Shown: positions 13,291 to 45,757 of the stretch, piece by piece
Layout: every line of letters begins with the position of its first letter
How positions within the stretch are numbered: position 1 is the first letter of the stretch
Origin: Patescibacteria group bacterium
GTDB taxonomy: Bacteria > Patescibacteriota > Minisyncoccia > UBA6257 > JACRHW01
Direction: 5' to 3'
DNA: 64,000 nt
Assembly: GCA_028865725.1 (NCBI GenBank)
Contig: JAGWJP010000003.1
Span: 1,697 to 65,696 of the forward strand
Notes under the pieces: model-generated
Database searches by the model: none
Told to the model about the DNA's origin: nothing
Seen by the model: the letters and a program-made list of their open reading frames with translations, nothing else
Made by a program: the position numbers and the translations under genes

Positions 13291-13686
13291 TTACGCATGA
13301 AAAGAACGCGTATTTGTCACTGCACTCATTAAGTTCATATCGGGATTTCCCACAATGTCGTTTTTTATAAGACTCTTGTACGCTTCGCGCATCTCATCAA
13401 TCTCTTTTTGTAATTCTTCTTTATAAGACTTCGGGTGCGGAAATTTATGAAGAAGACCTACCCTGTCTTCAAGATTATGATGCCAGTCTTCAACGCTATT
13501 GGGACATACCGCACGCACCCCATATCCCGGATAGCCGCCCATGACGACCTTATTTGTCAATGCGGCGCATATAGGACACAGAAACACCTGCAAACTCCGA
13601 AACGAATCTCCGCGTTGATTGGGATATGTCTTTCTACGCAAATCATAGAGTTGCACATCATTGGTATCGCTCATAAGCCCATCCAT
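13291..13686 (-). CDS. hypothetical Cys-containing protein
   Basis: 131-aa ORF with CPIC and CPNS pairs; no recognisable family. Confidence 0.3.
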   Translation of the reverse strand: MDGLMSDTNDVQLYDLRRKTYPNQRGDSFRSLQVFLCPICAALTNKVVMGGYPGYGVRAVCPNSVEDWHHNLEDRVGLLHKFPHPKSYKEELQKEIDEMREAYKSLIKNDIVGNPDMNLMSAVTNTRSFHA

Positions 13687-14127
13687 CCTCTTCTAAATGA
13701 TCTATCACCACCATACCTCACGATACCGGCGCATGCAATATGCCACGCGCGACGATGCGCTTCACCGTCTATTCACGCACAAAAAGATTGCAATGATCCT
13801 GCAGACTTTGTGGCAACGAGAATGCAAATTCAAGTATATTTATTAGACCTATGGGAGCGAATCCCCATCGCTGCACGCATGGGGGATAGAGCCGAAGCCC
13901 GGAACAAAGCGAGGGTCTCAAAAACTTAGAGAATCGTATCGATGCGCAGGAAGGGGGCGCGCGATTCGATACTCCTTGGCGAAAAGCGAAGGAATCAAGA
14001 AGCACAATGGGCATAAGCCCGCGGAAGGGTATTTGATTTCTCATTAATTCTCCTGTATTTTTAATTATGGCAACCCCATGTTTGCACCACACATGGGTCG
14101 CCTGGTTGAAATTTCATTTCAATCTAA

Positions 14128-14214
14128 GGAGAGGTGGCTGAGCGGCCGAAAGCGCCTCACTGCTAACGAGGTAGGGGGTAACACCCCTCGTGGGTTCGAA
14201 TCCCACCCTCTCCG
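14128..14214 (+). tRNA. tRNA-Ser (GCT)
   Basis: acceptor GGAGAGG/CCTCTCC, anticodon loop CTGCTAA, long variable arm, T-loop GGTTCGAATCC. Confidence 0.8.
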
Positions 14215-14250
14215 CATTGACATTTTTGTATCAGTGTGACCTTATTATTC

Positions 14251-14300
14251 GAGGTAGTGGGGCGGGTATCGGAGTGACCCATGCGGTTCGAGTCCTATTC
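14251..14300 (+). repeat. degenerate duplicate of the 3' half of tRNA-Ser (anticodon-stem 3' strand to ...TCTCCGCA)
   Basis: gaggtag(t)gggg...ggttcgagtcctattctctccgca aligns with tRNA-Ser 14170-14216 but T-stem no longer pairs. Confidence 0.6.
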
Positions 14301-14362
14301 TCTCCGCAAATGGGATTTCTGGTGAAAAAGCCTTGATGGGAACAGAGCTTTTTGGTTCTAAT
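14286..14362 (+). repeat. direct repeat copy 1 (ctctccgcaaatgggattt..aaaagccttgatgg..gctttttggttcta) containing a terminator-like hairpin
   Basis: roughly 65 nt at ~80% identity with 15079-15152; flanks HAD hydrolase gene. Confidence 0.6.
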
Positions 14363-14409
14363 ATAGAGCATCGTTGACCATATCGGAGGATTTCTGTATA
14401 GTGCATAGT

Positions 14410-15006
14410 ATGATAAAAGCAGTTATTTTTGACCTCAACGGGATTTTTATTCAAAGCCCAAAATTGAGTGATAGGTTTGAAAGCGATTTTCATATTCCTA
14501 CCACTGAATTTATTCCTAAATTGTCAGAAATAATGGATAATGTGCGACAACCTAATGCAGGTGCCGCATTCCAATACTGGAAACCCGCGTTGGAAGAGTG
14601 GAACGTCCATCTTACAGAACAGGAGTTCTGGGACTACTGGTTCGGGGCGGAAACAGTGTCCGAACAAATAGTGAACTTTGCGAGAGAATTAAAAAACAAG
14701 GGCATCCGCATTTTTGTCCTCTCTAACAACTTCAAAGAACGAGCCGACTACTATGGACACTATCCCTGGATGCACGAGGTGGTGGACAAAGCATATTTTT
14801 CTTGGCAGACAGGGTTTGTGAAACCCGATGAGAGAGCATGGATTTTGGTATGCTCCGAAAATAACCTCACGCCAGAAGAATGCCTTTACTTCGACGACCA
14901 GGTGAAAAACACCAATGCAGCAGAACACGTAGGCATGAAAGCTTTCATGTTCACAGGTGAAAACGAGTTACGAAAGACGGTAAACGAGTGCCTCAACGAA
15001 CATTGA
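14410..15006 (+). CDS. HAD-superfamily hydrolase (subfamily IA-like)
   Basis: motif I VIFDLNG (DxD), later FVLSNN and FDD; ORF begins 14374 but MIKAVIFDLNG at 14410 is the likelier start. Confidence 0.7.
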   Translation: MIKAVIFDLNGIFIQSPKLSDRFESDFHIPTTEFIPKLSEIMDNVRQPNAGAAFQYWKPALEEWNVHLTEQEFWDYWFGAETVSEQIVNFARELKNKGIRIFVLSNNFKERADYYGHYPWMHEVVDKAYFSWQTGFVKPDERAWILVCSENNLTPEECLYFDDQVKNTNAAEHVGMKAFMFTGENELRKTVNECLNEH

Positions 15007-15078
15007 GGCCTTTTCTTTTAGAAACTAGGAATATAAAACCGAGTGGTGGTATACAGGAAAAAGGTTCTAACCTCATCC

Positions 15079-15152
15079 ACTACTCTCCGCAAATGGGATT
15101 TTTGCTTGAAAAGCCTTGATGGTATCACGGCTTTTTGGTTCTAACCAAAAAG
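15079..15152 (+). repeat. direct repeat copy 2 with hairpin gaaaagcc/ggctttt + T-run
   Basis: matches 14286-14362; hairpin aaaagcc-N13-ggctttt followed by tgg ttc. Confidence 0.6.
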
Positions 15153-15209
15153 TTGACAAAATTAAATTATTATATTTGTATTATATCAGCACCCCAAAGG
15201 AGGTAACTA

Positions 15210-15656
15210 ATGTCACGACGCAATAGCCTGTGGGAAAAGGAGATTGGGAGCGTAGGGATTGATGCGGCACTTCTTGACCGTCTTCGATTTCATGGAGCTC
15301 TTACTGTCAGCGGAGTCATGGAATGCACCCAGCGTGGGAGACAGACCATCCTGAAACATTTCAAACGACTCGTAGAAAACAGGCAGGCACAATGGCGTCA
15401 GAAGGGAAATATGAGTACGATAACTCTCTTCAAGTATCCGCCCATTTCGCCCAGAACCCCTGTGAAAACAACTGAACCCAATATGGCTCTTCAAAGGGAG
15501 TGGACAGATGAGGGGTGGGAAAGTAAGAAGTGGGGTATCCGAGGTGAAGTTATCACCCATCACGATTCCCATGGTCTTTGCTATGAAGTAAGACATGAGG
15601 ACGGAACAAGAGGATATTATGACCCCTCCGAACTGGAAGTCATCTTGCTGGGATGA
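15210..15656 (+). CDS. hypothetical protein
   Basis: 148-aa ORF with strong SD AAGGAGG 7 nt upstream of ATG. Confidence 0.45.
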   Translation: MSRRNSLWEKEIGSVGIDAALLDRLRFHGALTVSGVMECTQRGRQTILKHFKRLVENRQAQWRQKGNMSTITLFKYPPISPRTPVKTTEPNMALQREWTDEGWESKKWGIRGEVITHHDSHGLCYEVRHEDGTRGYYDPSELEVILLG

Positions 15657-16122
15657 AGCAATCCCCATGAGAGAGCCGCATGCAAAAAAGTCTGATTTTT
15701 ATTTCAAACCGTGCGGAAAGGCTCGTGCATTCTTTACCACATGCGGTCACGTAGGGACGCTTCAATTTGACGTCGTGATACAAACAAACTGCAGAACGAT
15801 CACCCTGCTTAATCCCGAAGAAAGCCTTGCACGGCAAAAGAAAGGAATAAAAAACATAGATACGTATTGCGGGCGCTGCTATTTTGAATCAATCAAGAAA
15901 TTCGCAATCCGTTGCTGTTTCTGCGGAGATCCAATTCTTCCAGGCGATAGGGTGGGAACTTATAGTAAATCGTGTGCGCTCATTCGGAAAGAGATTACTA
16001 CCTTTGTGGAAGATGAAGTACTAGGATGCATGAAAGAAGGGTGTGGCTTCGCAGGTGCATTCGGAGGTTACTGGAGTGCGGAAGGATTCATCCCCGCATT
16101 TCCCCAAAAAGATACGACATAA
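15619..16122 (+). CDS. hypothetical Cys-rich protein (multiple CxxC pairs)
   Basis: ORF 15595-16122; AGAGGA SD-like before ATG 15619; CGRC..CCFCGD..CxxxxC pattern suggests metal binding; overlaps previous gene. Confidence 0.4.
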   Translation: MTPPNWKSSCWDEAIPMREPHAKKSDFYFKPCGKARAFFTTCGHVGTLQFDVVIQTNCRTITLLNPEESLARQKKGIKNIDTYCGRCYFESIKKFAIRCCFCGDPILPGDRVGTYSKSCALIRKEITTFVEDEVLGCMKEGCGFAGAFGGYWSAEGFIPAFPQKDTT

Positions 16123-16133
16123 AAAGATCAGGA

Positions 16134-16155
16134 CCGAGGATTCCTCGGTTTTTTG
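16134..16155 (+). terminator. rho-independent terminator
   Basis: ccgag-gattc-ctcgg followed by TTTTTTG, 12 nt after stop. Confidence 0.6.
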
Positions 16156-31306: not shown

Positions 31307-31385
31307 ATCAATGATAAAAATTTTCTCTACAAAAAATTAAATAGATTCGAGCAAAATTATTATAAATGCACACTCACTACGTTCG

Positions 31386-31407
31386 TGTGCACCCAGTAGG
31401 AATCGGT
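31386..31407. repeat. 22-bp exact copy of the tRNA-Lys 3' end (cgtgtgcacccagtaggaatcg)
   Basis: identical to 31536-31557; region 31381-31538 also has inverted ggaatcg/cgattcc fragments. Confidence 0.7.
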
Positions 31408-31538
31408 CACAAGTTTGCCTACGGCATCTCGCGACCCCAGCTCGCGTGCTCGTTTCTACTCGCACAAGCTCCGCTATTCGATTCCTAACGTGAGTGAAGC
31501 AGTTCACTCCCTCTAGGTGCACTCTCGCTTCTCTCGTG

Positions 31539-31611
31539 TGCACCCAGTAGGAATCGAACCTACAACCGTCTCCTTAAGAGGGAGCTGCTCTGCCAGTTGA
31601 GCTATGGGTGC
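31539..31611 (-). tRNA. tRNA-Lys (CTT)
   Basis: reverse complement gcacccatagctcaactggcagagca...ctcttaa...ggttcgattcctactgggtgca; anticodon loop cTCTTaa. Confidence 0.8.
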
Positions 31612-31671
31612 ATGGTATATCAAAAATCTGAAAGACTAGTGTTCAGATGGTACTATATTTTTTATCTGCAA

Positions 31672-32622
31672 TCAATGATGATCGGATCCTTTTCTTCTCG
31701 TCCCATGAAACGCTTTGTGGATCTCCTTCAACTCTTTATTCGTGATATGCGTATATACTTGTGTAGTCGCAATATTTGCGTGGCCAAGCAGCATCTGAAC
31801 TGAGCGTAAGTCTGCGCCGTTCATCAATAAATCCGTGGCAAAGAGATGGCGCAATTTATGAGGAGTGGTGTGTTTTGCAATGCCCGCTTTTGTCGCATAG
31901 TGCTCAACAATGCGTTGTACGCTCCGCGGCGTAAGGCGTGTACGTGGACGCGGGGGATCGGAATGGGTAAAGGAAATAAACATCGCCTCTTCCATATCAG
32001 TACGCGCATGATAATAGGCCGTAAGTGCCGCCCTAGCACTGGGGGAGAGAAATACCACCCGCACCTTCCCTCCTTTTCCGCGTACTGAAAACTCCTCCCG
32101 TTCCATATCAATAGAATCACGATTCAATGCACAGAGCTCCGACACGCGAAGCCCTGTTGAGAATAAAAGCTCTAAAATAGCCTTATCACGCAATGCCTTC
32201 ACATCTTTTCCTCCCAAAGAAAGCATGCGTTCAAGGTCTTTTCCATCCAAAATATCGATATCGCGGTCAGGCACCTTCCCAAGCTCTATCTTATCGGCTG
32301 CAAGCGTTGCAATATCACGCTTTGCGCAATATTTCAGAAAATTGCGAATGGCGATCACGTAGTAATTTTGCGTCACTTTTTTAAGGGAGGGATGCTTGTC
32401 GCTCGCCACGCGATTGAGCCACAATCTAAACTGCCGTACCGACTCCTGCGTGATATCTTCTGGGTATTTTGCCTTTGAAGCCTCAAAAAACCGCTTCAGA
32501 TAGCGCTCATAATTCTCCCGCGTTTTGATAGACCGTCCCTTCTCGATCTCGAGATAATCGAGATAATCGATAAGAAGATCCTTAAGCTGTTTCATATTCG
32601 CATCATCAATCCAGTATAGCAC
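31672..32622 (-). CDS. tyrosine site-specific recombinase, XerC/XerD family
   Basis: N-terminal SAM-like core-binding domain; catalytic R..HxxR..Y (LRHLFATDLL...GH..I..TQVYTH). Confidence 0.8.
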   Translation of the reverse strand: MLYWIDDANMKQLKDLLIDYLDYLEIEKGRSIKTRENYERYLKRFFEASKAKYPEDITQESVRQFRLWLNRVASDKHPSLKKVTQNYYVIAIRNFLKYCAKRDIATLAADKIELGKVPDRDIDILDGKDLERMLSLGGKDVKALRDKAILELLFSTGLRVSELCALNRDSIDMEREEFSVRGKGGKVRVVFLSPSARAALTAYYHARTDMEEAMFISFTHSDPPRPRTRLTPRSVQRIVEHYATKAGIAKHTTPHKLRHLFATDLLMNGADLRSVQMLLGHANIATTQVYTHITNKELKEIHKAFHGTRRKGSDHH

Positions 32623-44935: not shown

Positions 44936-45757
44936 ATGGGACAAAAGCTTGGACAACATTTTCTGATCAATCCTTCCGTACTTGCCCGGATTGCCGACGC
45001 GATTCATCCTCATACCAACGAAACGATCATTGAAGTGGGGCCGGGGCACGGGGAACTTACCGACGCGCTCCTTGCACTCAACCCCCATATTCGTCTTATT
45101 CTTATTGAAAAAGATGCGCACCTTGCGAAAAACCTTCGCGATAAGTACAGCACCACATCTATTGAAATCATAACAGGAGATGTTCTTACCCTACTGCCAT
45201 CTCTCCTGCATCCGGCGCCTGATACGCCACACTCTGTAAAAGTGGTGGGTAACATTCCCTACTATCTCACGGGGTTTCTACTGCACCGCCTCCTCGAACT
45301 TGAAGAACCCCCCCACACGATCGTATTCACGATCCAAAAAGAAGTGGCGGAACGTATCGTCGCACATGCACCCCACATGAATCTTCTGGCTGCCTCTGTC
45401 CAATATTTTGGCACGCCGGAACTCTTGTTCACTATTTCCCGACAGGACTTTAATCCGCCGCCGCAGGTAGATTCTGCGACGATTCGCATTACACTACGCA
45501 CACCTATTTCCACACGAGAAGAACGTGCCATATTTTTTCGCGTCGTAAAAGCCGGCTTCAGCCATCCGCGCAAACTTCTTATGAGCAACCTCATCGCCGC
45601 ATTCGCAGTTCCTAAATCCACACTCGAAAATATCTTTACACGCCTCGCGATACGACACGACGCGCGCGGACAACATCTTGACATTGCAACATGGTCTGCC
45701 CTTTCTCGTGATCTTCAGGATTCCTATCCCACCCTCTTCGCATTACCGAAATCTTGA
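44936..45757 (+). CDS. rsmA: 16S rRNA (adenine1518/1519-N6)-dimethyltransferase
   Basis: GQKLGQHFL start, EVGPGHGELT SAM motif; ORF opens 44843 overlapping pcrA. Confidence 0.85.
   Translation: MGQKLGQHFLINPSVLARIADAIHPHTNETIIEVGPGHGELTDALLALNPHIRLILIEKDAHLAKNLRDKYSTTSIEIITGDVLTLLPSLLHPAPDTPHSVKVVGNIPYYLTGFLLHRLLELEEPPHTIVFTIQKEVAERIVAHAPHMNLLAASVQYFGTPELLFTISRQDFNPPPQVDSATIRITLRTPISTREERAIFFRVVKAGFSHPRKLLMSNLIAAFAVPKSTLENIFTRLAIRHDARGQHLDIATWSALSRDLQDSYPTLFALPKS

Follow-up and report, generated by a model that had tools for sequence, protein, structure and literature searches.

What could have set two decayed copies of a tRNA 3′ end, each running into the same trailer, on either side of a single hydrolase gene? 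This question is raised by a locus on contig JAGWJP010000003.1 of a Patescibacteria group bacterium (GCA_028865725.1), of which we analysed a stretch of 64,000 nt (the window; all positions refer to it). Here an intact gene for tRNA-Ser(GCT) is followed by a degenerate copy of its own 3′ half (psiA), a gene for a HAD-IA family hydrolase (the HAD gene) and a further tRNA fragment (psiB). Behind psiA and psiB lie trailer copies rA and rB, respectively, and we refer to the two composite units as copy A and copy B. We consider it moderately probable that these repeats are inert, decayed attachment (att)-type scars, left when circular DNA inserted into the 3′ half of tRNA-Ser(GCT) on at least two successive occasions.

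ARAGORN and Rfam both called the tRNA-Ser(GCT) gene with its 3′ end at 14214/5 and its discriminator G at 14214, in agreement with the intact tRNA ending at 14214 described in an earlier note on this DNA. The gene does not encode CCA; it is followed by GCA and then by the 33-nt spacer. psiA shares identity with the tRNA from position 39 onward, a point that lies just 3′ of the anticodon loop. The start of psiA matched the tRNA at 11 of 12 positions (CGAGGTAGGGGG vs CGAGGTAGTGGG), as did 2 of 2000 shuffles, and its T-arm/acceptor part matched at 20 of 24 positions (GGTTCGAATCCCACCCTCTCCGCA vs GGTTCGAGTCCTATTCTCTCCGCA). In the whole window, a single local match to the tRNA 3′ half ranked above the latter stretch, which scored about 5 standard deviations above the mean. 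The variable arm of psiA carried indels, with three insertions in a global alignment, and the T-stem was broken, with two of its five pairs left when read directly; no tRNA model matched psiA at E<=5. The earlier note had placed a degenerate tRNA copy without a T-arm at 14251-14300, and this copy was found again in psiA with slightly wider limits (Table 1). The 33 nt before psiA were AT-rich without a trace of the tRNA 5′ half, so the identity begins abruptly at position 39, and the idea that psiA is a decayed full second tRNA gene was ruled out. A publicly annotated open reading frame (ORF) of 53 aa at 14245-14406 on the minus strand lies antisense to psiA and trailer copy A; this call is almost certainly spurious.

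From TCC...CTCTCCGCA onward, copy A recurs downstream of the HAD gene. The segments 14293-14361 and 15076-15144 formed a direct repeat of 69 nt at 84% identity, which blastn reported as 62 nt at 87% (E=5e-12), and copies A and B become identical from the 3′ edge of the T-loop. The repeat of about 65 nt with a hairpin proposed in the earlier note was thus recovered, with its second copy ending at 15144, a few bases off the proposed 15079-15152. Pfam and TIGR01509 matches confirmed that a HAD gene lies between the two copies, as had also been claimed. Within copy B, the stretch from 15063 to just before 15076 was a T-arm-like string full of indels, and no significant similarity to tRNA-Ser or psiA was found 5′ of about 15063. 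The locus therefore holds three tRNA-derived copies in direct orientation with unique DNA between them, and their decay follows their order: the tRNA is intact, psiA keeps the two matching stretches with indels, and psiB is riddled with indels. The 33-nt spacer is unrelated to the trailer found 3′ of psiA and psiB. Its sole similarity was a weak 14/15 match to the -10 region of the HAD gene, equalled in 32 of 2000 shuffles; the spacer was also compared with the promoter regions that follow the two repeat copies, and a homology was rejected as weak or not significant.

Table 1. Features of the tRNA-Ser(GCT) locus, in window coordinates
Feature	Position	Strand	Evidence and remarks
tRNA-Ser(GCT), intact	14128..14214	+	ARAGORN; Rfam tRNA 55.2 bits, full model
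Spacer between tRNA-Ser and psiA	14217..14249	+	33 nt, AT-rich, TTGACATTTTTGTATCAGTGTGACCTTATTATT
psiA, decayed tRNA-Ser copy	14250..14308	+	From position 39 (anticodon-stem 3′ strand) to ...CTCTCCGCA
Trailer copy rA, 53 nt	14309..14361	+	45/53 identical to rB; degraded terminator-like hairpin at 14326-14353 (fold z -0.2)
Promoter-like site before the HAD gene	14374..14402	+	TTGACC-17-TATAGT; consensus scan, 10/12 matches; consensus match only
HAD-IA family hydrolase gene, 198 aa	14410..15006	+	Pfam PF13419/PF00702 (HAD_2/Hydrolase); TIGR01509 40.3 bits vs cut-off 29.4
Intrinsic-terminator-like hairpin of the HAD gene	14990..15009	+	Overlaps the stop codon, then CTTTTCTTTT; -11.9 kcal/mol, z -2.8
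psiB, strongly decayed tRNA-Ser T-arm/acceptor fragment	15063..15091	+	GGTTCTAACCTCATCCACTACTCTCCGCA; only 15076-15091 securely homologous, via copy A
Trailer copy rB, 53 nt	15092..15144	+	Intact hairpin and T-run at 15109-15136; -17.1 kcal/mol, z -2.2
148-aa gene, outside the repeats	15210..15656	+	Strong Shine-Dalgarno sequence

The arrangement constrains how it can have arisen. A simple tandem duplication was excluded, because the HAD gene is present once and the spacer behind the tRNA bears no relation to the trailer behind psiA. Direct repeats flanking unique DNA are the product of a chromosome recombining with a circular molecule that carries the repeat. Since there are three tRNA-derived copies, and not one attL/attR pair, at least two such events are needed. 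The anticodon loop and the T-loop are the two symmetric sublocations of tDNA-targeting integrases (bioRxiv 10.1101/2020.11.02.365908), and the repeat boundaries lie at these sublocations, which favours an event of the integrase type. A regenerated target gene with a displaced fragment is the defining mark of tRNA-integrated islands of the Islander type (PMC4383910), and the locus shows an intact target tRNA, a displaced 3′ fragment as a direct repeat and a boundary at one of the canonical sublocations. Tandem arrays are documented to arise when an integrated element decays until it lacks an integrase and the same target is then used again (PMC5704250, PMC3146451); three copies in series, with decay rising away from the gene, fit this route. 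The scar of integrase-type insertion suggested in the earlier note thus stands as far as tRNA-derived repeats, the unique DNA between them and starts at integrase sub-sites are concerned; it does not stand as a single attL/attR pair, and no integrase accompanies it.

The locus-specificity of the repeat also counts for att-type scars. Two repeat probes, CTCTCCGCAAATGGGATTT and AAAAGCCTTGATGG...GCTTTTTGGTTCTAA, gave exactly two matches each in the 64 kb, compared with 0.00-0.01 expected, and a profile built from both copies detected no third copy in the window. The trailer repeat was absent from 47 relative, chance-hit and viral loci totalling 486 kb, and no trailer-like sequence was present at three contexts of HAD homologues or four contexts of homologues of the 148-aa protein. 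A dispersed terminator or repetitive extragenic palindromic (REP)-like repeat has many copies behind unrelated genes; the concern of the earlier note that the element might be such a generic repeat, occurring genome-wide, was not borne out: the 64 kb held two copies, and the public collections that were searched held none. The 19-mer across the junction had no match in IMG/VR, and its three matches in metagenome contigs were all rejected as chance, being inside unrelated coding sequence. The 24-mer from the tRNA-Ser 3′ end had 12 matches in IMG/VR, none of which was an attP for the tRNA-Ser locus: 11 were complete tRNA-Ser-type gene calls, mostly in phage tRNA arrays, and the remaining one was a tRNA-like gene without the acceptor 5′ strand, called Phe. 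Collections of phage and plasmid DNA showed no similarity, and sequences specific to psiA and to the insert at tRNA-Lys (described below) had no IMG/VR match. Elsewhere in the window, 19 nt at 45724-45742 resembled the tRNA-Ser 3′ end and first trailer bases with one mismatch (ATCCCACCCTCTTCGCATT); they lie at the 3′ coding end of a ksgA-like gene and are followed by TTGACAT. As the interval up to this point is full of housekeeping genes, the candidate was rejected as a distal att site and is probably a chance match.

The same duplication signature recurs independently at tRNA-Lys and on a related contig, which counts further for scars. The tRNA-Lys(CTT) gene (31538-31611, minus strand) has an exact 23-nt duplicate 151 bp downstream (31383-31405 vs 31534-31556), consisting of the last 19 nt of the tRNA from the T-loop and 4 nt of trailer. 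The next 16 nt are identical at 11 positions, and a hairpin built on GGTGCAC follows each copy. Between the copies lies an insert of 128 nt, which is GC-rich and structured (z -3.7) and in which a piece of the T-arm, AGGAATCGAA, stands inverted at 31477-31487. This duplication is much fresher than the one at tRNA-Ser. The related contig (L030; Logan SRR12113384_2749107) starts within a tRNA, the last 16 nt of which recur 188 bp downstream, where the second copy directly precedes the promoter of a homologue of the 148-aa gene. Positions 1-240 of L030 comprise the partial tRNA 3′ end, an imperfect inverted copy and the second direct copy; the tRNA end pairs with its inverted copy in a hairpin of about 40 bp (-70 kcal/mol, z -9.6), and an NCBI contig (L029) starts inside this repeat. 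None of 14 other tRNAs in the loci of relatives had a 3′-end duplicate, the longest background matches being 7-10 nt. No similarity was seen when the small inserts found at tRNA-Lys, on L030 and within the gap upstream of tRNA-Ser were compared with one another.

The anatomy of the repeats and their limits are established; from them we infer a sequence of events, with an integrase taking part, and the roles that the elements have today. The ancestral locus would have consisted of tRNA-Ser, the 53-nt trailer with its terminator and then the promoter of the 148-aa gene. A circle carrying the HAD gene together with a copy of the tRNA 3′ end and trailer may have recombined with it at the T-loop region, which would have put copies A and B on either side of the HAD gene; copy B, now displaced, would then have started to decay. 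A later event would have had its crossover at the anticodon loop. It would have given the present tRNA a fresh, functional 3′ half and displaced psiA. The second insert would since have been deleted almost wholly, with 33 nt remaining, and the recombinase gene or genes would have been lost. At present, psiA and psiB would be inert, and only the tRNA, the HAD gene and the copy B hairpin would matter. The copy B hairpin is likely to be a working terminator for tRNA/HAD transcription ahead of the 148-aa gene, and together with the terminator of the HAD gene it may insulate the 148-aa gene. As copy A is no longer terminator-like, transcription from the tRNA may continue into the HAD gene; a promoter-like site of its own also precedes that gene.

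Several observations weigh against this history. Protein-family scans of 13.3-21.5 kb, including the DNA between and beside the repeats, detected no integrase, excisionase, transfer or phage families, as the earlier note had stated for integrases. The sole recombinase in the 64 kb is of the Xer type and lies 17 kb from the tRNA-Ser repeats. Composition was flat, with a GC content of 0.42-0.50 throughout and a third-position value (GC3) of 0.49 in the HAD gene, within the 0.38-0.52 of the other genes. An integrase inside the element, one of the features of tDNA islands, is thus missing, as are foreign composition or mobile cargo, which are supportive and not strictly defining. The possible extension of an island into 15.2-20.6 kb, raised in the earlier note, found no support: there was no further repeat copy, GC was flat, GC3 was in range and mobile-element families were absent. 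The HAD gene itself looks like an ordinary, widely conserved Patescibacteria gene, unlike typical island cargo. No relative with an empty site was found, and none was close enough to show one; the nearest relatives had 50-67% identity in the neighbouring 127-aa protein and carried no tRNA-Ser(GCT) at that locus. The 53 nt of trailer in the repeat is more than in most att sites and unusual for a plain att core. Long att identity segments do occur in some actinomycete elements. The second insert proposed here would have left 33 nt only, and the part of copy B that shows tRNA ancestry is 16-29 nt long. Finally, RecA-mediated (Campbell-type) insertion of a circle would yield the same picture.

Because RecA-mediated insertion gives the same structure, we hold the integrase scar with no more than moderate confidence and grant a real, if rather unlikely, chance to a history without any mobile element, in which homologous (Campbell-type) recombination or illegitimate local rearrangement made the repeats. 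In such a history, a chromosomal segment bearing the HAD gene was looped out and reinserted next to the tRNA trailer, as part of the changes in gene order that are frequent near tRNA genes in this lineage. The missing mobile-element genes and compositional signal speak for it, as does a native-looking, conserved HAD gene whose neighbourhood differs in every relative examined. Synteny breaks here: in 12 related genomes, whose loci were collected with a profile of the 127-aa protein, the 127-aa gene was never beside tRNA-Ser(GCT). The 53 nt of repeat beyond the tRNA would also be expected if plain homology, and not an att core, had set its extent. However, arbitrary rearrangement does not predict boundaries at the edges of the anticodon loop and T-loop, which are seen at tRNA-Lys and in L030 as well, and the anatomy excludes simple tandem duplication. 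An improbable alternative is that the unit of 53-69 nt is a selected, reusable module (a terminator with insulator, or a regulatory leader) placed before the HAD and 148-aa genes, its likeness to the tRNA being incidental or co-opted. The good hairpin with T-run of copy B, the -35-like box TTGAC(A/C) within 8-12 nt after each copy and the better conservation of the trailer than of the tRNA-derived part between A and B would suit a module; yet it has just two copies in 64 kb and none elsewhere in the sequences searched, HAD and 148-aa homologues in relatives lack such a sequence nearby, and the hairpin of copy A is degraded, so that copy A gives no sign of selection.

A bolder version of the mobile-element idea is decidedly improbable. 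Patescibacteria may carry integrase-less micro-cassettes at tRNA 3′ ends (single genes or inserts below 200 bp), moved in trans by the integrase of a phage or island or by the single Xer-type recombinase of the host, and the HAD segment would be a live, excisable cassette of this kind. The short tRNA-end duplications at tRNA-Ser, tRNA-Lys and in L030 are compatible with it; the 84% identity of the repeats around the HAD gene and the lack of a variant junction in three assemblies argue against it, and the att copies at tRNA-Ser are probably too decayed to recombine. Integron and transposon explanations were rejected, as neither IntI, a transposase nor inverted repeats were found. It is extremely improbable that the locus is an artefact of assembly, that is, a chimeric join or a collapsed or expanded repeat. 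The source DNA is a metagenome-assembled genome (MAG), and contigs do break at tRNA sequences, with Logan contigs starting at 14193 and two NCBI contigs overlapping at 31438-31667. Against this, three independent assemblies are 100% identical over psiA, the HAD gene and psiB. Contigs of the Patescibacteria MAG GCA_028868355.1 match the window at 100% identity, and the locus segments 14193-15203 and 14193-16143 were recovered at the same identity in an NCBI MAG contig and in Logan contigs from SRR32006840 and SRR32006850. Moreover, a collapsed or duplicated read artefact is ruled out, since copies A and B have diverged by 16% and carry indels. At tRNA-Lys, the two NCBI contigs (JAGWUQ010000010 and JAGWUQ010000004) overlap exactly for 230 bp over the tRNA gene; this break in the MAG assembly is possibly due to strain heterogeneity or a repeat.

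The two proteins encoded beside the repeats were characterized further. The HAD protein had 853 homologues, all of Patescibacteria type and the best at 65-73% identity, and its homologue clusters numbered in the hundreds across Patescibacteria lineages. In three relatives, the gene stood in compact, mutually different contexts free of repeats. Its motif I reads DLNG, with Asn for the usual second Asp, and the same holds for the homologue in a relative (L027); its chemistry may therefore differ from that of a standard HAD phosphatase. The two HAD proteins are 72% identical, compared with 45% for PNPase and 47% for ChlI between the same two genomes, and judging from sequence this high identity could reflect either horizontal spread or a strong constraint on the protein. 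In the 148-aa protein, the N-terminus is helical and variable, and a C-terminal domain of about 70 aa (KYPPISPGT...HHDSHGLCY...DPSELEV) is conserved. This domain is predicted to be an SH3-like barrel (pLDDT 89-97), with B. subtilis YorP as its best structural match (E=8e-4), and it also occurs in seven IMG/VR viral contigs. Among the 12 contexts of the family (the window, L028, L030, L031-L038 and L044), a gene of this type lay directly downstream of a tRNA, within about 250 bp of its 3′ end, in three: the window (Ser), L028 (Tyr) and L030 (partial tRNA). The viral domain and the proximity to tRNAs hint at phage ancestry of the 148-aa gene and are no evidence of an island.

Upstream of tRNA-Ser lie infB, rbfA, tRNA-Cys, two hypothetical genes, msrB, msrA and the 127-aa hypothetical gene (minus strand). 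Downstream, the repeats with the HAD gene are followed by two hypothetical genes of 148 and 167 aa; by the group of a 738-aa hypothetical gene, a GFO/IDH/MocA oxidoreductase gene and an AAA_17 kinase-like gene (minus strand); and by genes for a TrmB-type regulator and an alpha-amylase. Between tRNA-Ser and the divergent 127-aa gene there is a gene-free gap of 453 bp (13675-14127), with GC up to 0.50 compared with about 0.44 nearby. The gap had no Rfam match, no protein-family match in any frame and no conservation in relatives, and a structured-RNA test of its GC-rich 430 nt 5′ of tRNA-Ser was not significant (z -1.3 and -0.7). At a relaxed threshold, Rfam reported only tRNAs and spurious hairpin families in 13.3-15.3 kb and 31.1-31.7 kb. 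The gene for the Xer-type tyrosine recombinase (31672-32595, minus strand, 307 aa) has the same orientation as tRNA-Lys and lies 60 bp upstream. The protein scored 227.9 bits against the XerA model (cut-off 220), remained under the cut-offs of XerC and XerD and was far below those of integron-integrase models; it is probably the chromosome-dimer resolvase.

If the repeats are att-type scars, a streamlined Patescibacteria genome has undergone integration at its tRNA genes, and only a few dozen or hundred bases of the inserts were kept afterwards. This would be a small data point on the turnover of mobile elements and deletion bias in a phylum whose integrative elements are poorly documented. 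For annotation, the locus flags pseudo-tRNA fragments and the spurious minus-strand ORF. The scars at tRNA-Ser alone raise no new question.

Among known systems, the closest are islands and prophages of the Islander type at tRNA and tmRNA genes. In these, too, copies of the 3′ part of an intact tRNA stand behind it as direct repeats and mark off the inserted DNA (PMC4383910), and the repeats start at the anticodon-loop and T-loop sublocations (bioRxiv 10.1101/2020.11.02.365908). Unlike them, the tRNA-Ser locus has no integrase, its inserts are tiny (33 nt and about 0.7 kb) and native in composition, its cargo is one conserved, housekeeping-like gene, its repeat includes a 53-nt trailer, and its copies are 84% identical. 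Serial direct repeats of a tDNA 3′ end downstream of the gene are also known from Streptococcus composites of integrative and conjugative (ICE), integrative and mobilizable (IME) and cis-mobilizable (CIME) elements and from the ssrA islands of Dehalococcoides, and such CIME or accretion arrays can hold elements between repeats without integration genes (PMC5704250, PMC3146451). As in a CIME, the repeat flanks a segment with the HAD gene only and no integration or transfer genes inside. These arrays, however, contain recognisable related elements and at least one integrase in the array or population, whereas no autonomous element of the same att specificity was found for the tRNA-Ser locus in the IMG/VR, metagenome-contig, phage and plasmid collections searched. 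Integron cassettes resemble the locus in having a single gene between imperfect hairpin-containing repeats of 60-110 nt. They differ from it in their integron integrase and attI; here there are just two repeats, which are tRNA-derived direct repeats and not attC palindromes, and the HAD gene has its own promoter-like site. In E. coli tyrT, 178-bp tandem repeats each start with the last 19 bp of the tRNA-Tyr gene, and termination occurs inside the repeat, so that a tRNA 3′ end and its downstream trailer are repeated behind the gene as they are here. The tyrT units are contiguous head-to-tail, whereas at tRNA-Ser unique DNA and a complete gene lie between the copies and one copy reaches the anticodon stem. 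The feature is thus of an ordinary, known kind, most likely decayed, integrase-less insertion scars anchored at a tRNA gene, and its novelty is confined to the host phylum and to inserts that are very small.

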